Shown here one piece after another: positions 1,245 to 19,822 of a stretch of 64,000 bases of DNA; position 1 is the stretch's first letter; every line of letters starts with the position of its first letter. The stretch covers positions 1 through 64,000 of the forward strand of contig NZ_JBQHXR010000008.1 of assembly GCF_052063365.1 (NCBI RefSeq). Reading direction: 5' to 3'. The position numbers were made by a program, and so were the translations under genes. The notes beneath the pieces are model-generated. The model did not search any database. It had not been told where the DNA came from and saw only the letters and a list, made by a program, of their open reading frames with translations. This DNA is from Blautia sp. HCP3S3_G3 (GTDB taxonomy: Bacteria > Bacillota > Clostridia > Lachnospirales > Lachnospiraceae).

Positions 1245-2087
1245 ATGAGCTTGTATCGCACAATAATTCCCAAGTATACATTTATTCCATATGACTTTCC
1301 TACTTCTAGAGATGGAAAATATCATTGTCTGCTTGATGATGGGCAGATTTTGAGGTCTAGAAGGGAACAACTCGGTCTATCAGTTTATCAGGTTGCTGAA
1401 ATGGCGGGTATACAATTCAGTCAATATCAGCGTCTTGAATCAGGGGAACGTTTCTTTTCCGGATGTTCTATGAAAATTGGACTCTCTGTGTGTGCCGTTC
1501 TTTTGCTTGACCCTTTTGAGTTCTTCGACGTCAATGTTAAACAGCCAAAACCGGATATCATGATGCCACATGAGGTTTTTGACGGACTCCAAGATGAAAT
1601 GCCACGCCCCAAAAAAGTTGGTAGAAAGCCTATTAGGAGGGACATTATGACTGTATACTTTAATCACCCATCTTTTTCAATCATCATCCCCCGCGAAGTA
1701 TTAGTGGCTCTCGGCAAGCCCGCATATATCCAAATGATGTGGAATCTTAACGAAAAACGGCTTCTGCTTCATGTTATAGATTCTGACGCAGAGCAAGCAT
1801 TTGATATTCCACCTCATCTTTACGATAGTTGTACCGCTCTTGCTTTTCCTCGTGCTGCTATATTTTCAGAGCTAAAAGAAGGACTTGGGTGGGATACCGA
1901 GCTTTATGCAGCGGAATGTCGGATTGTCTATGATAAAACCAATGAACTTTTTATTCTCTGCGATTTAAACACCGCACAAAAATCCGAAAAAATAGTGGGA
2001 CCTTTTGCTATTCCGACATGCATTGATGATGGCATGGATGATGACGAAATCTTAGATGAGGATGGTGAAGAAAATGAAGAGCTATAA
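1245..2087 (+). CDS. DNA-binding protein: N-terminal XRE-type HTH, central AbrB/MazE-like swapped-hairpin-like segment, acidic C-terminal tail
   Basis: LRSRREQLGLSVYQVAEMAGIQFSQYQRLESGER is an HTH_3 pattern. SIIIPREVLVALGKPAYIQMMW resembles an AbrB-type hairpin. The C-terminus is DDGMDDDEILDEDGEENEEL. Confidence 0.45.
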   Translation: MSLYRTIIPKYTFIPYDFPTSRDGKYHCLLDDGQILRSRREQLGLSVYQVAEMAGIQFSQYQRLESGERFFSGCSMKIGLSVCAVLLLDPFEFFDVNVKQPKPDIMMPHEVFDGLQDEMPRPKKVGRKPIRRDIMTVYFNHPSFSIIIPREVLVALGKPAYIQMMWNLNEKRLLLHVIDSDAEQAFDIPPHLYDSCTALAFPRAAIFSELKEGLGWDTELYAAECRIVYDKTNELFILCDLNTAQKSEKIVGPFAIPTCIDDGMDDDEILDEDGEENEEL

Positions 2088-3522
2088 AGTGACAGTCCCG
2101 AATCGTCATAATCTCCCGCAGTCATTTGGTGTGAATGAATACGATGATCATATTAAACTGAGTGCCTATCTATCCAATAACATAAATAGTGTAGATATCC
2201 CTACGCAGATATCCGAGAAGCCGGTGACGGTAGTCGGAGCCGACTGTTTCTTCAATCATGGAGAAATCACAGAAATCAGTTTCCCGGATACTCTGACCAA
2301 TATAGAGACACAGGCTTTTGCTATGTGCAAGGGGATCAAGGAATTGATTCTTCCCGGCAGCATCAAAGAGATTGAAAGTTATGCATTTCGTGACTGTACG
2401 GGCCTGAAGAAGATTATTCTTCCTTCCAGTCTTAAAACATTGAAGCAAGGAACATTTGCGTTTACCTATTTACCGGATGATGTAAAGATTACTTTAAACG
2501 AGGGGCTCGAAACTATTCAATCCAAAGTTTTCTCCGGAGGAGGGGTTAATTTAGGCTTCACTGTAAAGCTGCCGTCTACTGTCAAACAGTTGGCTGACGA
2601 CGCCTTTGATCCTGGAATTAGGGTAATCCGCATTAACTATGATAAGCACATTCCTCTACAACATTCTGTAAAAGCCGCACAGGTTATACGAGAAGCTATA
2701 TCTGAGAGTGATCTGAATGACCACATTGATACAAGCATCGATTTGCTCCGTAGAATTAAGCAAGAGCATAACTTAGGTCTTTTGACTGATCACGAATGCG
2801 AAAAGCTTTTCTATGAGGAGTTTTGCAAAGGCTTTTTCGAATATCTAAAAAGCAAAAGACTTAAAGCCAAAATATGCGATAACAATTGGAACCTGTTCAT
2901 AAAAGATTACAACCTTTGGAGAGAAGGAAACACTACTCCATCCAACGCGAATGAGTCGTGGCTATTCTATGTCGATTCTGAGCCAGCCAGCCAGACAGAC
3001 AAAACATGCTTTTTCAAATTGATGGAGTCTTATTCTGTTCCTCTTGCATACTTCAAGCCTATTTCCGATAACTGCGTTTTTCCAAGTCTTCACTACGATG
3101 TGTATGGGACGTATATGGCAGGGACGGTCAAGTTTGAATTAATTGATGATAGTGGCCTGTACACATGTAATAATCCGATAGACAAGCAATTTGTTTTAAC
3201 CGATAAGACCGGCCTGAAAGCGTATATAGCTGTAAATAGACCTGCTAAAAAAGATGAACTACATAATCTTATGACTACTGCGTTTATCGGAACCGGTACG
3301 ATTGATGGATATACAAGTTCTCGAGCCCGTGAGATTTACATCTCCATTAAGGAACAACAAACAGTATGGTTTTGGTTTGTTGTTGGGAGCGATGATCTTG
3401 ATGTCCTCCATCACTTTCCACTTTGGGATTCCTACAACGCTTTTGAAACAGAGCGGCAGGAGAAAATACATGAGCACATTCTTAATCTAATGTATCGAAT
3501 CGATAATGAAAGCCATGAATGA
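2074..3522 (+). CDS. Cytoplasmic leucine-rich-repeat (BspA-type LRR) protein with a ~300-aa C-terminal domain of unknown function
   Basis: Repeated ...I.LP.S...I...AF..C..L..I motifs (ISFPDTLTNIETQAFAMCKGIKELILPGSIKEIESYAFRDCTGLKKIILPSSLKTL). No signal peptide. It overlaps the upstream gene, so the two are probably translationally coupled. Confidence 0.5.
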   Translation: MKSYKVTVPNRHNLPQSFGVNEYDDHIKLSAYLSNNINSVDIPTQISEKPVTVVGADCFFNHGEITEISFPDTLTNIETQAFAMCKGIKELILPGSIKEIESYAFRDCTGLKKIILPSSLKTLKQGTFAFTYLPDDVKITLNEGLETIQSKVFSGGGVNLGFTVKLPSTVKQLADDAFDPGIRVIRINYDKHIPLQHSVKAAQVIREAISESDLNDHIDTSIDLLRRIKQEHNLGLLTDHECEKLFYEEFCKGFFEYLKSKRLKAKICDNNWNLFIKDYNLWREGNTTPSNANESWLFYVDSEPASQTDKTCFFKLMESYSVPLAYFKPISDNCVFPSLHYDVYGTYMAGTVKFELIDDSGLYTCNNPIDKQFVLTDKTGLKAYIAVNRPAKKDELHNLMTTAFIGTGTIDGYTSSRAREIYISIKEQQTVWFWFVVGSDDLDVLHHFPLWDSYNAFETERQEKIHEHILNLMYRIDNESHE

Positions 3523-3537
3523 AACGGAGGACGAAGA

Positions 3538-3855
3538 ATGTACAGATTTGACTACTCTTTGGACGATTATCTCCGTGTAACCGATAATTGCGCCAATCAC
3601 GTTAAAATGCTCCTCCAGACCCGCTATGATGAACTGGAGCATATTCGTGAAGCTATCAATGATCGTTATCCATTCGAAGATCTGTTTCTGAAACAAGCCG
3701 AAGTGGATGATGAAAAATTTCTAATTCACAGACTTTTGGAATATTTGGATTCATGCGTTCTTGAGCGAAGGGAATTCCGAAGGGAAATGTTTTCAGATGC
3801 CGCAGGAAGTGCAACTGGTACAACAGATGATAGCGGATCAAGAGAGTCAGTCTGA
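3538..3855 (+). CDS. Hypothetical 105-aa protein, third gene of the plus-strand operon
   Basis: RBS GGAGGACGAAGAATG. No recognisable motifs. Confidence 0.4.
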   Translation: MYRFDYSLDDYLRVTDNCANHVKMLLQTRYDELEHIREAINDRYPFEDLFLKQAEVDDEKFLIHRLLEYLDSCVLERREFRREMFSDAAGSATGTTDDSGSRESV

Positions 3856-4458
3856 AAGCCACTTTTCTTTGTCCTCATCTGTTAAGTGGCTTGAAAAATT
3901 GCACGTATTTCTCGATTCTCCATAATCATTTATCATGGGCTCTTGATAAATGTTTCGACCAGCAATTACCTCCCACAGAGTAAGCAACACTTCTTTCTTG
4001 CATTTTCCTCCCAGATTTCGAATGCGAGAAAGTGGGCCAAACTCCAATATATCACGAACTGTGTGTATTCCAGCACGTTTCAAGCAATTTGTGCTACGAA
4101 CGCTCATGTCCAGTTCCTCCACAGTCATACTCATTACGTTTTGATCGACCTCAAAAATAACCCCTTCAATGCTATCTCTAAACTCCATAATCTGACACGC
4201 CATTTCCTGCTGCCTTGACTTTACAATATCACGGAAATTCGGGCAATACTTGTTTAGCCAGGCTTCGGACTCTTCCTGCGTTTCACATTGTTCAAAATCA
4301 TCCAGGTCCTCTTGATCAACATTTTTACTGAGGTCCCTACCTACATTCACCTCGAGTTCTTTCCGGACGATGTCCGAGAAGAGTTTTCCCTCTTCAACGG
4401 TCTCAAAACGGATTCCATGCCGCTCAAGTTCCTTTTGGTCGAATTCATATTTGTTCAA
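3847..4458 (-). CDS. Hypothetical protein with a C-terminal RNA polymerase alpha-subunit CTD-like helix-hairpin-helix domain (alphaCTD-like, residues ~108-165)
   Basis: [30 protein letters not shown]...[12 protein letters not shown] is near-identical to bacterial RpoA CTD (e.g. B. subtilis [24 protein letters not shown]...VRNLGRKSLEEV). The N-terminal 105 aa are unrelated to RpoA. Confidence 0.5.
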   Translation of the reverse strand: [203 protein letters not shown]

Positions 4459-4473
4459 TAGATTCTCCTCCTA

Positions 4474-6759
4474 TCAAATTGATTTTTTTAATTCCTGCCT
4501 GCGGACGGACCACTCTTCAAGGAATGCTGGTATCACTAGGTGAGAGCGTTCTTCCATAATCTTTTGAGGATTGTTCAGAAGATTCAGGATTTCTGAAGAG
4601 GTCAGCGCGCGCAAATCCATGTAGGGCTTTACAAGTCGTTCGATGCTGCTCTGTTCAATGTAAGCTGCAACAGCTTCGCCATCTTTCTGCATCTTCGGCT
4701 TATCAATCGTTAAAGTGAACGGAGCTGTTTGTCGCCCATCTACGCTCAATGTAGTTATGGCATTGAAAGCATCAAGTCTCGCCAAATTCACTTTCATATT
4801 TGGATCGTCAAAACGAACTGCTGCCGTATGTGCATCTCTGGGAGAAAGACGAAAAGCGCTGAAGTTCGCAGAATTTGACTCCAGAGCATCACGAATTTCA
4901 GCCGTCAGTTGACCCGTATGCTGATGACATAGCACCATAGCCAACCCGAACTTTCTAGACTCCGCCAGCATTCTTGGCATAGGATTCGTTTGGAACAAAG
5001 CTGCCTCATCTACCACCACAAAGTGCGTTTTGTCCCGTTCATGCCGAGCCATGGCAGCATTCCATAGCTTCATAAGTAGAAGCGTTCCAACAATCCGAGC
5101 TGCGTGAGTACCGATATTGGGAGATGCCAAATCAATCAGCGTTACCGTATCGGTATCGATTGAATTCGTGAAGTCTAAGGCATTTGCCCCAGCCCCTAGA
5201 GTCTTACGTAGCTGCTCTACAGAGATAAGCCTTTGAAACTTGCACAAATACCAATTGAGCGTTGCCTGAAAATCATTGCTTTTGTCTGTGCCATATTCCT
5301 GCTTAATAGTCTCCACAAGCTCAGGGTAGCGGTTGACGATTGCTTTACTTACTTTCAACATATTATCCTGGCTCTGGGAAATAACAGCAATGCTCTCCAA
5401 AGAAGCTCTTCTGCCGAGGAAGGCAATTGACGCCTTAGCAAATGTTGAGAACCACCGTTCCCAGCGTGGTCCGACGAAACATTCTCCCGGAGGGTTGAAA
5501 ATATCTCCGAAGAGCTCGCATAGATCGCTAATATTCCGTTCTTCCTTGGACGGATCATCACTGTCCCAAATATTCAATGGTACCGGATGCTCTGCGTCAC
5601 CGATTCGGACAACGCGCACACGTTCAGCATACTGCTTTGGAATCATTCTGAGAAGCAAGTCAATAGTACTTCCGTGCGGATCAAAAAACGTCAGACCATG
5701 ACCCTTTTCGATTGCACTCAGAATGAGCTTCGTAAGGAGTGTGGATTTGCCCGTTCCGGTTTGCCCAACGATCTGATAATGGCGTTTTATATCTGTTTCA
5801 CCGATGGTAATCCTCCTACAAATACCTGCAGTATCGACTGCTTTGCCAATTTCGACTGCGCCATGGCTCTTAGTGTTCCGATGGCTTGCAGGTATCTTCT
5901 TTACGGGTTCTTCACAGACCTGAAGACCAATAGTTGTTTCATGGATTTCAGGTTCCATCATTAGAATTCTGGCTGCATAGTCGGGTAAGATCTGGGCCTC
6001 AAATAAAGGATTTCTCCAAATTTCTTCAGCTTTCTTGGTTTCAATATCACCGACATATCTACACTTAGCCCCTTGAACTGCCTCCTCCAATACTGTCTTT
6101 AAGCGAATAGAAGGAGAAGTAGGAAGAAGGAGGAGGACTCGCATTTTTACCGGTCTCCCTAGGTAGTCCCTAACTGAAATACCATCCACATCATAACTAT
6201 GCAGCGTGTTCTTGCGGCAGAAAGTCTGTTCCTCGTCTGTAGCCGGACCTACGACAACTCGCATGACGGCTCCAGTATCTCGCAGCACGCTGACGAGCTC
6301 AGCAAATATTTCGGAGTAATGTGTTGGCCATTTAGAAATGCTATCATCTTTAGTGGTAGGGGTTCCACAGTTAAAGCCAATAATCGCTCTTGTCTGTCCT
6401 GTCTCTGTTATAGGAAGATAGACCTCATATAGCTGTGTTAGACTAGAGACAGAGGTTTTCAAGACTCCCTTGACAGTTTTTCCGGTCTTTTCAGCACACC
6501 ATCTTAGTTCTTTCTCCGTAAATTCTTCTGAACCAAAGAGACTAAGAATCGCAAGACCCTTTGTTGGAATCTCAATCTGCCAGCCAACGAAGCTTTCTTC
6601 ATTCATGACAGATGCACACTTCACCATTCGGGAAGACATTCTCTCAGAAAGCAGCTTCTTTCCTTCACTCTTTATAAGGCTCTCCAAACGGACAGCGACT
6701 GCTGTGTTGTTGGGATAGTAATTACTCTTCATCTGTAGCACCTCCTTAGTAGGCTTCAC
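4474..6759 (-). CDS. Soluble HerA/VirB4/FtsK-clade P-loop ATPase (DUF87/AAA_10-like) with ~330-aa N-terminal domain of unknown function
   Basis: Walker A GQTGTGKST followed by FDPHGS (the HerA/T4CP DPxGE motif). Walker B HFVVVDEAALF. ESRKFGLAMVLCHQHTGQL matches the EGRKYG...Q sensor/arginine-finger motif of HerA/VirB4. No TM segments. Confidence 0.6.
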   Translation of the reverse strand: MKPTKEVLQMKSNYYPNNTAVAVRLESLIKSEGKKLLSERMSSRMVKCASVMNEESFVGWQIEIPTKGLAILSLFGSEEFTEKELRWCAEKTGKTVKGVLKTSVSSLTQLYEVYLPITETGQTRAIIGFNCGTPTTKDDSISKWPTHYSEIFAELVSVLRDTGAVMRVVVGPATDEEQTFCRKNTLHSYDVDGISVRDYLGRPVKMRVLLLLPTSPSIRLKTVLEEAVQGAKCRYVGDIETKKAEEIWRNPLFEAQILPDYAARILMMEPEIHETTIGLQVCEEPVKKIPASHRNTKSHGAVEIGKAVDTAGICRRITIGETDIKRHYQIVGQTGTGKSTLLTKLILSAIEKGHGLTFFDPHGSTIDLLLRMIPKQYAERVRVVRIGDAEHPVPLNIWDSDDPSKEERNISDLCELFGDIFNPPGECFVGPRWERWFSTFAKASIAFLGRRASLESIAVISQSQDNMLKVSKAIVNRYPELVETIKQEYGTDKSNDFQATLNWYLCKFQRLISVEQLRKTLGAGANALDFTNSIDTDTVTLIDLASPNIGTHAARIVGTLLLMKLWNAAMARHERDKTHFVVVDEAALFQTNPMPRMLAESRKFGLAMVLCHQHTGQLTAEIRDALESNSANFSAFRLSPRDAHTAAVRFDDPNMKVNLARLDAFNAITTLSVDGRQTAPFTLTIDKPKMQKDGEAVAAYIEQSSIERLVKPYMDLRALTSSEILNLLNNPQKIMEERSHLVIPAFLEEWSVRRQELKKSI

Positions 6760-7042
6760 GTTCTAACATATAATCATTGATAACGGACACGAGATGTTTA
6801 GTCACTTCATAAAGTCCAGAGGATCCCGTTCTACCAACATGGAAGCAGCCAAGGGAGGCCGGGGTCCAGCGACGAACATCATCTATTGCTACTCCGTCTT
6901 TAAGGAGATCATATAGCAACCCGTTATGTCTATGATATATGAGATATTCACGCTGGCCGGAGAAATCGAGATAGATATTGAATCCGTCTCTGTTTCCATT
7001 GTTAACTGCGCACACTCTAATGTTTCTGTTATTTTTCTTCAT
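6746..7042 (-). CDS. Hypothetical 98-aa protein, first gene of the minus-strand 3-gene operon. Its 3-prime end overlaps the ATPase gene start.
   Basis: ORF with a 14-bp overlap to the downstream ATPase gene. No motifs recognised. Confidence 0.4.
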   Translation of the reverse strand: MKKNNRNIRVCAVNNGNRDGFNIYLDFSGQREYLIYHRHNGLLYDLLKDGVAIDDVRRWTPASLGCFHVGRTGSSGLYEVTKHLVSVINDYMLEREAY

Positions 7043-7237
7043 TTACTGATACCTCCACATCACAGGACTTCGTTTTTCTCCTATTCATTAAACGTAGCCT
7101 GCTAATGTTTATCGTATTTGAAATATCATTTTTGCACGTGATGGCGGCGCCCCGACTGTCTTCAGCCGCAATCGGTCGCTGTTGCCGAACTCTACGCCCC
7201 GGCAACCGGGCGATGACCACAATATGAAATTGTCAAG

Positions 7238-7340
7238 GTGCAGGTGGAAAACAAAAAAGCCGATGCTCTGATAAACAACCAAATGGGTAGACTTTCCCTC
7301 CGGGAAATCATTTAGTCACTTATCAGAGCATCGGCTCTAA
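7238..7340 (-). terminator. Long hairpin (17-bp stem agccgatgctctgataa / ttatcagagcatcggct) followed on the minus strand by TTTTTTGTTTTCC. Candidate terminator for transcripts arriving from the CRISPR/IS side.
   Basis: Inverted repeat and T-tract read directly. The ~45-nt loop contains a mini-hairpin tttccc/gggaaa. Confidence 0.4.
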
Positions 7341-7435
7341 ACATTTTTAATTTGTGTTTAGACTATATCATAGGCTGGTGCTTTTGTCAACAGGTGAATT
7401 TAAAATCTGTTTTTCTCCTGTTAATCACGGTGATA

Positions 7436-7626
7436 AAATGTACAAAAATCACGCTCAAAAAATGTACAATCAACCTCCAATAAATTAGTATCAGTTTATT
7501 GGAGGAATAAGAATGATTGGAGATAAATGGTTGAGCATAAGAAACGACAGAAAAAAAAGAATGAGTTATTCCGAAATAGGCAGGAAATATAACATCGATC
7601 GCCGTACCGCAAAGGTAAGGTACAAC
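7436..7626 (+). mobile_element. IS21-like element left end (repeated TGTACAA motifs) plus N-terminal HTH fragment of an IstA-like transposase, truncated at a partial CRISPR repeat
   Basis: tgtacaaaaatcac ... aatgtacaatcaacc direct repeats, then GGAGG RBS and ATG at 7513 encoding MIGDKWLSIRNDRKKRMSYSEIGRKYNIDRRTAK (HTH, IstA-like). The reading frame runs into the half repeat aaaggtaaggtacaac at 7611. Confidence 0.35.
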
Positions 7627-7821
7627 ATGAGCGGTTGATCGGTTCGAAGAATCGTGACTGGGAGTGTCAATTCCTCATAGGTAAGGTACAACTTTCCAGT
7701 CAATCTAAACGCGCCTTCAAGAAAGGTGTGTCAATTCCTCATAGGTAAGGTACAACGAAGCCCATAAGCGCTTCACTTCCGACGACGCAATCGTGTCAAT
7801 TCCTCATAGGTAAGGTACAAC
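7611..7821 (-). CRISPR. CRISPR array 1: one partial (16-bp) repeat plus three full 29-bp repeats GTGTCAATTCCTCATAGGTAAGGTACAAC, written on the plus strand. Spacers are 37, 35 and 36 bp. Transcribed on the minus strand.
   Basis: Exact repeats at 7664-7692, 7728-7756 and 7793-7821. The conserved leader abuts the 7821 end. The reverse complement GTTGTACCTTACCTATGAGGAATTGACAC resembles clostridial type I-B repeats (GTTGAACCTTAAC...). Confidence 0.9.
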
Positions 7822-8215
7822 AACAGTATTTTTGCTGTCTTCCCATTTATATTACCTCTTTTTTCCTCTGCTTACAAGCATTTTCTCCCAAAAAGTCGGT
7901 CAATCTCCTTTTCATCACACCCTACAAATGCCTAAATTTAAAGCTTTCCTATTATTTGCAAATAGAGGTCTGAGGTTGACCGACTTTTTCCTTCTTTCAA
8001 TTCCCTTTTTCTATATATTTTGCTCGATTTTTATAAAAAATCATCCCTTCCAAATAAATCCAATCTTCCCTCAAGCCTTGTTTTTCAAGCATTCGAAGCA
8101 CCTTTTAACTCTATATGAGGTTGACCGACTTTTTCCACACATTGTGTTCAGGAAATCGAAAATAGAAATATGTAATCTGAAAATAATATGAAATAAAGCC
8201 TAATTGTATTGTAAT
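7822..8215 (-). promoter_or_regulatory. CRISPR leader 1 (~390 bp, AT-rich). It contains three copies of a TTGACCGACTTTTT motif.
   Basis: ~95% identical to 9746-10115, which flanks array 2 on the same side. Motif copies at 7890-7903 (inverted), 7971-7990 and 8117-8136. Confidence 0.6.
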
Positions 8216-9144: not shown

Positions 9145-9305
9145 TTCGTAACATGAATGAACGCTAAATGCTACCTGAACACAATCTCCATGTATGGATC
9201 GGGATTTTAGCACAATATCCACCAAATCACCTAGTGGGATAGTGATTGCTGAATAGTTACAACATTACATACATTTAGAATATTTCCTCTTAATATTTGA
9301 ACTAC

Positions 9306-9745
9306 CTCATAGGTAAAGTATAACGTAATTCCGGCAATTGAAAATGCGTGGATTGTATAGTATCAATTCCTCATAGGTAAGGTACAACAATAGTTTCAAG
9401 AGCAAAAGATCAGCTGATCTCTCGTGTCAATTCCTCATAGGTAAGGTACAACATGCATTTTATCCCAGAAAGGACGGTGAAAAAGTATGACTAGTAAACA
9501 GTGTCAATTCCTCATAGGTAAGGTACAACTGGAACCGAAGGATCCGAATGCTGCTCCGCAGGGACAGGTGTGTCAATTCCTCATAGGTAAGGTACAACGT
9601 TTTTACTTCGAGCGTCGTGCGCTGATGATCGGTGGCGTGTCAATTCCTCATAGGTAAGGTACAACGGTTGAACCGAATTGCATTTATGTTCAAGCTCCAT
9701 ATTGAGTGTCAATTCCTCATAGGTAAGGTACAACAACAGTATTTC
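9306..9745 (-). CRISPR. CRISPR array 2: degenerate terminal repeat (9306-9335), one 1-mismatch repeat (9371-9399) and five exact 29-bp repeats. Spacers are 35, 35, 48, 40, 38 and 40 bp. Same repeat as array 1. Transcribed on the minus strand.
   Basis: Repeats at 9435-9463, 9512-9540, 9581-9609, 9648-9676 and 9717-9745. The degenerate repeats sit at the end opposite the conserved leader. Confidence 0.9.
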
Positions 9746-10115
9746 TGCTGTCTTCTCATTTATATTACCTCTTTTTTCCTCTGCTTACAAGCATTTTCTC
9801 CCAAAAAGTCGGTCAATCTCCTTTTCATCACACCCTACAAATGCCTAAATTTAAAGCTTTTCTATTATTTGCAAATAGAGATTTGAGGTTGACCGACTTT
9901 TTCCTTCTTTCAATTCCTTTTTTCTATATATTCTGCTCGATTTTTATAAAAAATCATCCTTTCCAAATAAATCCAATCTTCCCTCAAACCTTGTTTTTCA
10001 AGCATTCGAAGCACCTTTCTACTTTAAATGAGGTTGACCGACTTTTTCCACACATTGTGTTCAGGGATTGAAAATAAAAATATGCAATCTTAAAATAATG
10101 TGAAACAAGGGAACA
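9746..10115 (-). promoter_or_regulatory. CRISPR leader 2, near-identical to leader 1, with the same three TTGACCGACTTTTT motif copies
   Basis: Motif copies at 9803-9816 (inverted), 9885-9904 and 10031-10050. Similarity to leader 1 is lost after ~10115. Confidence 0.6.
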
Positions 10116-17568: not shown

Positions 17569-18660
17569 CTACACCAGTGTCATGATGATCTGGATGATAC
17601 AAAGCAGAGCGCTGATTCCAAGTCCCCACCCTGCAGCAAATCTCCAGAACTGTTTTTTGTCAAGCGGCAGATCTCCCACCATTTTTCCTGTCTGGCCATT
17701 CATAGCAAATATATATTTTTTCCCAGCCCAGGTAGTATTGAGAATCCATACAGGATAAAGTGCATACCAGTACCGTGCATTGCGGGTCTGAATGTTGGTA
17801 TGAGATTCTGATACATTCTGATATCCCTGAACGGTTTCACGAAATGCATTTATGGCACTGCTGCGGATCCTGTTGTCTGCACGCCTGATACATTCCTCCG
17901 CTTTCATATCGTAGCGGTCAGCAGCATATCCCGCAAGGTAAGCCGGATTAAAAGGAACAGCTTCCGAAAAATGATAAGGCTCTATGGACTCCATCAGTGC
18001 ATCGTCCATTTTTTTGGAACAGTCAGTGGGAACATTTTTGAAGCTTACGCTGCCGCTCCTGTGAATTTCATAATAATTGTGCTCCGTGTACTCCATACTG
18101 CGGTCCTGCCATATGCGTATTTTCTCTGCATTATAGGAAATATCTCCGTGAACCTCTGCGTCAAATATCCAGAATGGTACATAGATACCCTTGATTTCAT
18201 CGATGTGATTTTCTGCTTTGAAAACTTTCGGCAGGAAATTTTTGCCTTTTAAGTGTTTGTAATAAGCTTCTTTTGCCGCTTTTTTGTCTAATTTAAACGG
18301 AATCACGTAATCCGGTTTTAAATCTCCGGAAAACTGTCCCTTCATAACAACAGGGTTGCCGCAGAACGGGCAGGCAGAAGCACCTGTTGTTTCATCAGCA
18401 ATGATTTCACCACCGCAGGACTGGCAGGAATATATTCGCATTCCTTCTGTTTCGCCATCCTCCCACTGACCGCTGCCGTTCGCCGTCCAGTCCGGACTGC
18501 CGTTATCTGGATCCCCGCCATCGGCTCCGCCCTGAGCCATCTGATAATCTGCGATACTCATTTCCGTATCGCAGTAAGGGCATTTCATCTTCTGACTGCT
18601 GCTGTCAAATTCCATAGCCCCGCCGCAGGCAGGGCATTTATACTCAATAACCTCAGACAT
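17569..18660 (-). CDS. Zinc-ribbon membrane protein (two CxxC-CxxC ribbons, C-terminal TM helix). YdjG-like.
   Basis: CPACGG...CPYCD and CQSCGG...CPFCGN. C-terminal hydrophobic FWRFAAGWGLGISALLCIIQIIMTLV. Confidence 0.5.
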   Translation of the reverse strand: MSEVIEYKCPACGGAMEFDSSSQKMKCPYCDTEMSIADYQMAQGGADGGDPDNGSPDWTANGSGQWEDGETEGMRIYSCQSCGGEIIADETTGASACPFCGNPVVMKGQFSGDLKPDYVIPFKLDKKAAKEAYYKHLKGKNFLPKVFKAENHIDEIKGIYVPFWIFDAEVHGDISYNAEKIRIWQDRSMEYTEHNYYEIHRSGSVSFKNVPTDCSKKMDDALMESIEPYHFSEAVPFNPAYLAGYAADRYDMKAEECIRRADNRIRSSAINAFRETVQGYQNVSESHTNIQTRNARYWYALYPVWILNTTWAGKKYIFAMNGQTGKMVGDLPLDKKQFWRFAAGWGLGISALLCIIQIIMTLV

Positions 18661-18754
18661 CCGGTATCATCTCCTTCCCGTACACTTCCTGTCATCTTAT
18701 CATCTTCTGCTTTGGTGCAGAAACTTTATATGTACAAGTTTTAAGATATCATTT

Positions 18755-19822
18755 TTATCTCATATCGTTCCCATCGATCGGATCGCCGCACTGCGGACAG
18801 AATCTCGGGATCTGAGTTGGATCTTCCGGAACCCAGCCGCATTTATCACAGCGGATGCCATTTGGCTGCTGAGTGTATATGCTATTTCCGTTCATTCCAT
18901 TAAACTGCTGGTTATAACCTCCCTGCACTGCATTCATCTGCTGACCGTAGCTACCCTGCGCTGCGCCAAACTGCTGATTATAACTACCCTGCATTCCATT
19001 CACCGGCTGGCCATAGCCATTCTGCATCCCATTTACCGGCTGGCCATAGCCGCCCTGCATTCCGTTTACCGGCTGGCCATACATTCCGCCCTGCATTCCG
19101 TTTACCGGCTGACCGTACATTCCGCCCTGCATTCCGTTTACCGGCTGACCGTACATTCCACCCTGCATTCCATTTACCGGCTGACCGTACATTCCGCCTG
19201 CCTGCGGAGCGTAACCCATTCCGGTAAGCGCAGCAACAATCTGGTTTCCGGTATTTTCCATTTCTGACATTTTCATGCGGTCATGCTCATCAACGGAAGA
19301 ACTGTTCAGTCTGAAGTCCATATCATCAAACCAGGGGGAATTGATTCCCAGTTTAATGGAATAATCATAGGAATATTTATACCTTGGAGGATTATAATCC
19401 TTCAGATTTCCTTCATTATCACGGTACTGTTCTTCCCTGCGGTTCTGTTCAATATTCAGACGGCAGCTTACCACCTGTGACAGATCCACAATATCCGGAT
19501 TGTTTTCAGCACTGAAGCGTAATGCTACTGTAAACTGTCCCTTTGTATCATCAATAAATACATGATAGCTGTCTCCCGCAAATTCACGGGTAATCTGAAA
19601 TGCCTGAACTTTCGCTTTATTTGCTTCTCTGTATGCCAGCTGTTTTTTGATGTCCTCTACTGTACTGTGACGGCGCTCCTCAAACCATGGAGAAAGTTTC
19701 TTTGCACAGTCCTTGCAGAGATTGCCGTCGTCAAGCTTGCGGTTTCCAAGAAGACCGATTTCACCGCCGCAGATATCACATACTTTTTTCTCAAATACTT
19801 TTCCAAATAATCCCATAAACAA
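18755..19822 (-). CDS. Zinc-ribbon protein with an internal GGMYGQPVNGMQ tandem-repeat region and a C-terminal CDKCGW...CPQCGD ribbon
   Basis: N-terminal CDICGG...CKDCAKKL. 5-6 copies of the 12-aa repeat. The C-terminal ribbon is shared with the SPFH protein. Confidence 0.5.
   Translation of the reverse strand: MFMGLFGKVFEKKVCDICGGEIGLLGNRKLDDGNLCKDCAKKLSPWFEERRHSTVEDIKKQLAYREANKAKVQAFQITREFAGDSYHVFIDDTKGQFTVALRFSAENNPDIVDLSQVVSCRLNIEQNRREEQYRDNEGNLKDYNPPRYKYSYDYSIKLGINSPWFDDMDFRLNSSSVDEHDRMKMSEMENTGNQIVAALTGMGYAPQAGGMYGQPVNGMQGGMYGQPVNGMQGGMYGQPVNGMQGGMYGQPVNGMQGGYGQPVNGMQNGYGQPVNGMQGSYNQQFGAAQGSYGQQMNAVQGGYNQQFNGMNGNSIYTQQPNGIRCDKCGWVPEDPTQIPRFCPQCGDPIDGNDMR
18985..19200. repeat. 36-bp tandem DNA repeats encoding GGMYGQPVNGMQ
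   Basis: ccctgcattccgtttaccggctg(a/g)cc(g/a)tacattccgc units repeated about six times. Confidence 0.7.

Follow-up and report, generated by a model that had tools for sequence, protein, structure and literature searches.

Gene organization of the operon

The 64,000-nt stretch of Blautia sp. HCP3S3_G3 contig NZ_JBQHXR010000008.1 analyzed here, referred to below as the window, carries on its minus strand an operon of three genes, namely: p98, an ATPase gene, and p203, which encodes an adaptor protein. Coordinates given without a locus name are positions in the window. The operon and its relatives in other genomes represent a real, experimentally uncharacterized cassette. The cassette is conserved and, in line with the first-pass annotation of this DNA, resides in genomic islands and combines a soluble ATPase of the HerA/VirB4 clade with a partner bearing a copy of the C-terminal domain of the RNA polymerase (RNAP) alpha subunit (alphaCTD). 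In addition, the ATPase operon is headed by a structured leader of ~250 nt.

Translation places the three open reading frames (ORFs) at exactly the positions originally assigned to them (6746-7042, 4474-6759 and 3847-4458). p98, the optional first gene, starts at the ATG at 7042 and encodes a 98-aa protein without any known domain. For the ATPase, the longest ORF (761 aa) extends to 6759, and the most likely start is the ATG at 6732, since AAGGAGG lies 8 nt upstream of it and a near-identical cluster representative is 752 aa long, which is the length obtained from this codon (4474-6732). The p98 and ATPase genes are therefore 13 nt apart and do not share the 14 bp of overlap initially described. 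The p203 gene (3847-4458; 203 aa) has a TTG start codon, with AGGAGG 8 nt upstream. Because no 19-residue window exceeds a hydropathy of 1.24 in any of the three proteins, all of them are soluble, as had been proposed for the ATPase.

The N-terminal half of p203 matches the Pfam family DUF5663 (nt 4201-4395) and is followed by the alphaCTD copy (nt 3976-4146). The latter had been recognized from the sequence at the outset and is amply supported, with a match to RNA_pol_A_CTD at an E-value of 9e-16 (57.8 bits, cutoff 23.8) and with the alphaCTDs of Firmicute RpoA proteins as the best PDB matches (E-value 1e-11). p203 is not RpoA itself: the N-terminal dimerization and assembly domain of alpha is absent, and rpoA models give 31-51 bits where 228-523 are required.

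An ATPase of narrow distribution with a VirB4-like fold

The ATPase matches DUF87 and TrwB_AAD_bind in Pfam, and the HerA/FtsK/VirB4 motifs quoted for it earlier can be read in its translation. The Walker A, Walker B and ESRKFG/CHQH motifs are invariant across 30 homologues (58-73% identity). Its N-domain takes up residues ~1-300 and is followed by a RecA-type motor, into which an all-alpha segment is inserted. The protein ends in a C-terminal tail, the last ~25 residues of which are predicted to form a helix with a conserved PxW/FLxxW motif. The N-domain, which had been presented as novel and unrecognizable, has a VirB4-NTD/EccE-like fold. Judged by its sequence, it is restricted to one narrow family: a set of 1.8 billion representative proteins contains 68 clusters of it, at 50% identity. 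The ATPase family has >330 full-length members, which come from Lachnospiraceae/Oscillospiraceae-type genomes and are annotated merely as 'DUF87 domain-containing'.

Searches of PADLOC, NCBIfam and PHROGs with all three window proteins yielded nothing beyond distant matches to the motor; PHROG 5156 (6.8e-36) is a family without assigned function. A phage origin of the ATPase was considered and rejected, as tblastn found no match to it in 50,697 GenBank phage records and there was none in IMG/VR.

The conserved unit is an ATPase-adaptor pair

Homologous loci were collected from genomes and metagenomes (63 in all, denoted by L and a number) and reduced to 39 non-redundant groups, to which contig look-ups added 4 (43 groups). 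When all ORFs within 5 kb of the ATPase were clustered without prior assumptions, just three recurring neighbour families emerged, namely: the DUF5663 partner, p98, and a module of BspA-type leucine-rich repeats (LRR). Thirty groups extend far enough downstream to be scored, and in 19 of them the DUF5663 gene lies directly 3′ of the ATPase gene; adding L064-L068 brings this to 21 of 34. The DUF5663 gene is on the same strand as the ATPase every time, at a median distance of 21 nt from the ATPase stop codon, and about half of these partners carry the alphaCTD. p98 precedes the ATPase gene in 5 of the ~35 groups that could be scored, while the full trio occurs elsewhere in L012 and L022 alone. 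The three-gene system first suggested is thus not what gene neighbourhoods conserve: the conserved part is the pair of ATPase and DUF5663 adaptor, with optional extras, rather than an obligate trio. In L008 and L066, the p98 slot is filled by an unrelated small protein, sp2, and p98 is likely to be an optional accessory rather than a core subunit.

Coupling of the ATPase to transcription-machinery modules

The DUF5663-alphaCTD architecture of p203 recurs in L007, L008, L022, L033, L036, L038, L044, L045 and L064. Among the alphaCTD copies, the DNA-contact motif R-S-x-N-C-L-K in the first helix-hairpin-helix (HhH) is nearly invariant and N-L-G-x-K is usually kept; in a residue test for the 265 determinant, p203 was found to keep both. 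The presence of the partner follows that of the ATPase tail, since a DUF5663 partner is seen in 15 of the 16 groups whose ATPase has the C-terminal tail and in 4 of the 14 whose ATPase lacks it (Fisher p = 3.8e-4, uncorrected for phylogeny). Furthermore, three groups classed as 'partner-less' (L049, L048 and L047) have the alphaCTD fused to the C-terminus of the ATPase itself; in L049, it spans residues 744-795 of 828 (E-value 1.7e-16). The P0029 ATPase ends in a PcrA/UvrD Tudor domain instead of an alphaCTD (E-value 7.5e-8), and this domain is the RNAP-binding module of PcrA/UvrD (PMC8318588, PMC5397179).

We infer that the tail helix and DUF5663 form a split linker. By analogy, the functional unit may be a ring ATPase with several flexibly tethered modules that bind the transcription machinery or A/T-rich DNA. 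FtsK is a hexameric double-stranded DNA pump in which a small C-terminal gamma domain, held on a flexible linker, recognizes DNA and directs loading. The gamma domain is a winged helix, whereas the module in the present family is an alphaCTD, an HhH fold that binds A/T DNA in the minor groove, and it is often found on a separate polypeptide.

A word-index search with the DUF5663 half returned just 3 near-identical fragments, and a literature search on DUF5663 found no papers. A second copy of the ATPase tail and DUF5663 in L007 was considered as a portable docking pair and rejected, as it is the remnant of a second ATPase gene.

A structured leader RNA at the head of the operon

The leader lies on the minus strand and consists, in 5′-to-3′ order, of a promoter, a ~90-nt hairpin with a U-run, a box, a GC-rich domain and a ribosome-binding site, after which follows the ATG of p98 at 7042. 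The promoter (7362-7390) is of the sigmaA type: it reads TTGACA-17-TATAGT, agrees with the consensus at 11 of 12 positions and has an extended TG. It is the sole strong promoter-like site upstream of the window operon, and equivalent promoters occupy the same position in L049, L047, L023 and L041. Element 1 (7252-7338) folds into a long hairpin of ~28 bp, after which comes a U-run; the fold includes an asymmetric loop, and its inner hairpin is conserved. Element 2 (7224-7240) is a near-invariant box that reads CACCTTGACAATTTCAT on the coding strand and is present 5′ of the ATPase operon in at least 16 non-redundant groups, with the consensus (C/U)ACCUUGACAA(U/C)UUCAU. Element 3 (7143-7211) is a GC-rich domain, termed class A, that forms two hairpins, GUUGCCG...CGGCAAC and CCGAU...GUCGG; the second of these has a GGCUGAAGA loop. 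Parts of the leader region are 70-87% identical between loci whose ATPases share just 52-67%.

In an alignment of 13 loci, 6 pairs of the 12-bp basal stem of the element 1 hairpin show compensatory double changes, and one pair of this stem is seen as AU, UA, GC and CG. Most loci have a class-B domain at the position of element 3. Of the 22 pairs in this domain, 13 show double changes. The share of paired cells is 90% and falls to 22-44% when the partners are slid, and none of 500 shuffles scored as high. The class-A domain, which occurs in the window, L007, L041, L003 and L068, has 18 pairs, of which 5 show double changes among 4 independent sequences, a small number. A model of the class-B domain (R1) gave 27 matches in 736 kb searched on both strands, and all 27, including many at loci outside its seed, lie on the ATPase strand at operon heads. 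The same placement holds for the matches of the hairpin-and-box model (R2), which scores 109 bits on the window and also matches non-seed loci, while the class-A model (R3) picked out a non-seed copy at L068:7858-7961, directly upstream of the L068 ATPase. In total, the leader was found in 23 of the 35 groups with upstream sequence and is the ATPase's most constant companion. Searches of Rfam 15 gave no match at gathering score in the window, where the E-value mode returned spurious microRNA matches; in six class-B loci, nothing reached E ≤ 0.01. As a structured RNA, the leader is well supported and new to Rfam.

In some loci the leader lies further upstream and therefore marks a longer operon. 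In L018, the leader-marked operon encodes an RNB nuclease, a TPR protein, a stand-alone protein resembling DNA polymerase III (Pol III) alpha, the ATPase and DUF5663; in L022, it encodes an alphaCTD-AAA+ protein, p98, the ATPase, the adaptor and an AAA+ protein.

Element 1 may terminate transcription as an intrinsic terminator, serve as an attenuator, or form the 3′ end of a small RNA of ~100 nt. The first-pass annotation had placed a dedicated terminator at 7238-7340 that would separate the operon from CRISPR read-through. A long hairpin with a U-run does exist (7338-7252), but the role as an insulator is not upheld, because the hairpin lies ~20 nt downstream of the operon's own promoter and is retained in loci without CRISPR arrays. 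It belongs to the conserved leader, which that annotation had not recognized. The leader would rather act as an attenuator that lowers expression, with the ~100-nt terminated RNA as a by-product or cofactor. Its layout is not that of a standard riboswitch, since the terminator comes before the structured domain.

Two other roles for the box were considered. It is not a sigmaA -35 element, as no -10 hexamer is found 16-18 nt further on in any locus, and an anti-Shine-Dalgarno (SD) function is unsupported, since the C/U variation at its first base, compared by eye, is independent of the base after the SD. The lone viral match to the box is a chance match; it falls within a portal gene, and none of the RNA models matches there.

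Two further observations concern the leader region. A 63-aa ORF with a GTG start (7029-7220, minus strand) overlaps the class-A domain and is probably not a gene. In L003, a class-A leader copy is found downstream of the ATPase-DUF5663 pair (L003:12600-13305), after three ~90-nt direct repeats, and is followed by an ORF of tandem GGAQQTTLPGGGFHG repeats.

Genomic context

The flanks differ completely between ATPase homologues. In L001, the ATPase gene is embedded in a type III / RT-Cas1 CRISPR-Cas locus, with the type III effector genes on one side and RT-Cas1/Cas2 on the other. The neighbours are Cas13a in L065; Cas1, Cas2, Csm6, an integrase and IS66 in L066; TIR and NACHT in L002 and L003; an MmeI-type restriction-modification system and Mu/IS21/IS110 transposition genes in L067; an AAA-protease in L068; and Macro and nuclease genes in L069. 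cas genes are present in 3 of 10 annotated homologous neighbourhoods, and CRISPR arrays in the fetched flanks of 2 of the 39 groups. By guilt by association, defence or inter-element conflict would be the best-supported role of the cassette.

The orphan CRISPR arrays reported earlier for the window are indeed present, as two small arrays at 7591-7822 (minus strand; 4 repeats, transcribed towards the operon; CRISPR leader 7823-8092) and 9289-9735 (CRISPR leader 9736-10005). Each has a duplicated CRISPR leader of ~300 nt, a GNAT gene lies between the arrays, and no cas genes are found out to ~26 kb. The repeat, GTTGTACCTTACCTATGAGGAATTGACAC, agrees at 24 of 29 positions with the type III/RT-Cas1 repeat of L001 (L001:12551-13505 and 18517-19447).

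Two details of the surroundings turned out differently from the first description. The operon itself is not AT-rich (GC content of 0.447, against 0.438 for the window), the flanks alone being modestly AT-richer (0.40), and the presumed insertion sequence remnant, an ORF at 153-506, has no Pfam, profile or PDB sequence match. The window DNA is 98% identical to Coprococcus intestinihominis.

Comparison with known systems

PADLOC matched no system among the window proteins. Its best match, mad8 (E-value 8.6e-13), covers the motor only, and the flanking proteins have no mad matches. Genes of type IV secretion systems (T4SS) were likewise not seen, either in the window flanks or in 10 annotated homologous neighbourhoods. 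Within these searches, the lack of a match to a known defence or conjugation module, asserted from the outset, is borne out.

Among published descriptions, the nearest is the EccE3-HerA cassette, which Bell et al. 2024 (eLife, PMC11090510) noted computationally: an EccE3-like N-domain with a VirB4-like ATPase and a small helical protein, inserted into extended Type III-A CoCoNuT/TerY-P operons with vWA genes on either side. In architecture, the window ATPase similarly has an EccE3-like N-domain fused to a VirB4-like ATPase, and the DUF5663 protein, whose gene adjoins that of the ATPase in 21 of 34 groups, is a candidate counterpart of the small helical protein. In contrast, the window cassette stands alone, without flanking vWA or CoCoNuT genes; neither in the window nor at the 10 annotated homologous loci does a vWA, McrBC or CoCoNuT gene adjoin the ATPase. 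PP2C, Ser/Thr kinase and vWA genes were seen only beside p98 homologues without an ATPase, a milieu that fits the EccE3-HerA setting. The coupling to alphaCTD or Tudor, the stand-alone form and the leader RNA are absent from the text and supplements of Bell et al. 2024 that were examined. The system is not 'undescribed' in its architecture, as had been thought.

VirB4/TrwK proteins of T4SS share with the window ATPase the two-domain architecture, the NTD and CTD folds and intact Walker motifs, but the latter has neither T4SS partners nor membrane association, and curated VirB4 models fail on it (TIGR00929 at 11.3 bits, cutoff 643; VirB4_plasma at 14, cutoff 590). With the C-terminal translocase of DptH/DndH, only the motor fold is shared, and a PADLOC match to DndH (1.2e-7) covers 110 residues; DptH is a protein of ~1700 aa that works with DptF and DptG, and such genes and N-regions are absent from the window. 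HerA-SIR2 (Nezha) and HerA-DUF4297 also pair a HerA-clade ATPase, hexameric in their case, with one partner in defence islands, and their motor is structurally similar. Their partners, however, are enzymatic (SIR2, nuclease), whereas the window partner has no recognizable effector domain. HerA itself has a HAS-barrel N-domain in place of the VirB4/EccE-like one, and HerA models score far below cutoff on the window ATPase. In the neighbourhood census, no NurA, SIR2 or DUF4297 is adjacent to the ATPase, the partner being DUF5663 with alphaCTD. Finally, PcrA/UvrD and Mfd are motors that a Tudor-fold domain brings to RNAP (PMC8318588, PMC5397179), and the P0029 motor carries the same Tudor at its C-terminus. 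Those motors are SF1/SF2 enzymes, in contrast to the FtsK/HerA-type ring of the window family, most members of which have an alphaCTD instead.

Proposed function and alternatives

We interpret the locus as a modular cassette in which an orphan VirB4-like ATPase, headed by a leader RNA, is accompanied by an alphaCTD adaptor in variable islands of gut Clostridia and serves in conflict or defence; this reading has, in our estimate, about an even chance of being correct. In this cassette, the ATPase, catalytically intact by its motifs, would form a hexameric nucleic-acid translocase, coupled to a transcription-machinery module in three interchangeable forms. In the form seen in the window, a separate adaptor would dock through DUF5663 on the C-terminal tail helix of the ATPase and present the alphaCTD as its second domain; in the other forms, the alphaCTD or a PcrA/UvrD-type Tudor domain would be provided by direct fusion to the ATPase. 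Six tethered alphaCTD (or Tudor) modules could then guide the motor to A/T-rich promoter-type DNA, to RNAP or to RNAP regulators. The leader terminator would hold expression low until released by a signal, and the whole cassette would act against invading DNA, i.e. in defence. A more far-reaching version has a low, though real, chance: a new immune or conflict machine in which the ring translocase acts on the RNAP or promoters of the invader, or in which the alphaCTD/Tudor modules are decoys for phage factors that otherwise take over the host alpha subunit, while the leader gates or guides the machine as a new class of riboregulator or as an RNA cofactor.

Several points weigh against the cassette acting in defence as outlined. 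PADLOC finds no matching system, and the defence role is drawn from neighbourhood alone, in islands of a kind that hold non-defence cargo too. In about one third of the groups, no partner and no leader could be detected; many such groups have the most divergent ATPases or lie on short contigs. The second DNA-contact motif is lost in some alphaCTD copies, and an alphaCTD can bind DNA, sigma or activators, so that several targets are possible. The association of tail and partner is subject to the phylogenetic caveat given with it above, and the position of the terminator, 5′ of the structured domain, is unusual for a riboswitch.

The strongest competing account, although still rather unlikely, is a housekeeping or stress factor that is coupled to transcription in the manner of Mfd, PcrA/UvrD, HelD or Rho. 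Its motor would bind RNAP or promoters and clear stalled complexes or R-loops, and it would have no immune function. The recurrence of RNAP-related modules (alphaCTD, Tudor) as fusions or partners, with Tudor a known RNAP-binding module, is what such a factor would lead one to expect. This account fits poorly with the patchy, strain-variable distribution of the family, with flanks that hold many defence and mobile genes and are completely different even where the homologues are close, and with an N-domain confined to so few clusters. A further alternative is a remnant or minimal apparatus for conjugation or DNA transfer, in which the VirB4-like ATPase would power transfer or mobilization of the island and p203 would be an accessory that recognizes DNA. 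We consider this improbable, given that VirB3/6/8, VirD4, relaxase and cell-wall hydrolase genes are missing from the 10 annotated neighbourhoods and the window flanks, that the proteins have no transmembrane segments, that the ATPase scores far below the cutoffs of the VirB4/TraD NCBIfam models (11 against 643 bits), and that plasmids have no full-length homologue of the ATPase, the best match being 33% identical and limited to the motor.

The position of the L001 homologue between type III effector genes and RT-Cas1/Cas2, the shared repeat (24 of 29 positions, in the same orientation) and the presence of Cas1/Cas2/Csm6 near the ATPase in L066 and of Cas13a in L065 would suit an accessory module of type III CRISPR-Cas, with the 'orphan' arrays of the window as the remains of the association. 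This account has only a slim chance: arrays accompany just 2 of 39 groups, most long contexts have no cas genes, the operon has its own promoter and leader, and proximity to CRISPR is expected of any gene in a defence island. An obligate three-gene system, with p98, ATPase and p203 all essential, is equally doubtful. Its genes are tightly packed behind strong ribosome-binding sites, and the full set recurs in L012 and L022; against this, p98 is absent from about 30 of the 35 testable groups, occurs without a DUF5663 partner in L010 and L031, gives way to sp2 in L008 and L066, and is also found where there is no ATPase.

Ring ATPases of the HerA/FtsK/VirB4 type are emerging as defence motors, and their targeting modules are poorly understood. 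In the present family, the putative targeting module is a copy of a core RNAP domain, attached in three independent ways: through a split adaptor, by direct fusion, or by substitution with an RNAP-binding Tudor domain. This suggests that a DNA pump is tied to the transcription machinery, a connection that our literature search did not find described for any defence system. The leader, with its strong covariation, no Rfam match and its tie to one protein family, is a candidate riboregulator of gut Clostridia. For the 'EccE3-HerA plus helical protein' cassette of the CoCoNuT literature, these features provide a concrete, testable hypothesis.

Small proteins and accessory genes

No profile match to p98 was obtained in Pfam, PADLOC or NCBIfam, and no sequence match in the PDB; p98 is a genuine protein family with 72 clusters. 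Homologues of p98 without an ATPase are found in clusters of PP2C phosphatase, Ser/Thr kinase (PD-T4-6/mad6-like) and vWA genes (L070:6001-6288 and L071:6001-6357), and the L071 cluster adjoins a CARF-HEPN Csx1-like gene and RT-Cas1. The sp2 proteins (97-124 aa; motif ...VCNLxVGE...IYCG...) are encoded directly 3′ of a leader copy, at L065:15128-15421, L008:781-1131 and L066:7614-7988; in L065, the leader-sp2 unit is 7 kb from the ATPase.

Stand-alone proteins of ~480-615 aa, in which the palm is the sole Pol III alpha domain apart from the finger domain in those of L018 and L066, adjoin the ATPase in three unrelated loci (L018:8503-9948, L066:5791-7212 and L065:10599-12446) and may be another recurring island component. 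SpoVK-type AAA+ ATPases (AAA and AAA_lid_6) also recur in ATPase operons (L022:7534-9477, L022:12657-14009, L012:10507-15930 and L064:10913-12034). One of them, in L022 (647 aa), is fused to an alphaCTD, and another, in L012 (1807 aa), to a trypsin-like protease.

Convergent to the window operon is a plus-strand operon (1245-3855) of possible accessory genes, which by Pfam encodes a helix-turn-helix protein, p488 (a cytoplasmic BspA-type LRR protein) and p105. p488 (2056-3522, plus strand) has no signal peptide or transmembrane segment. A BspA-type LRR module like its N-module is found near the ATPase in about 8 groups (window, L003, L008, L012, L036, L045, L065 and L067), in varying positions and on either strand. 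p105 (3538-3855, plus strand), downstream of p488, is conserved in L008 as well, and p488 and p105 may be loosely associated accessory genes or common island cargo.

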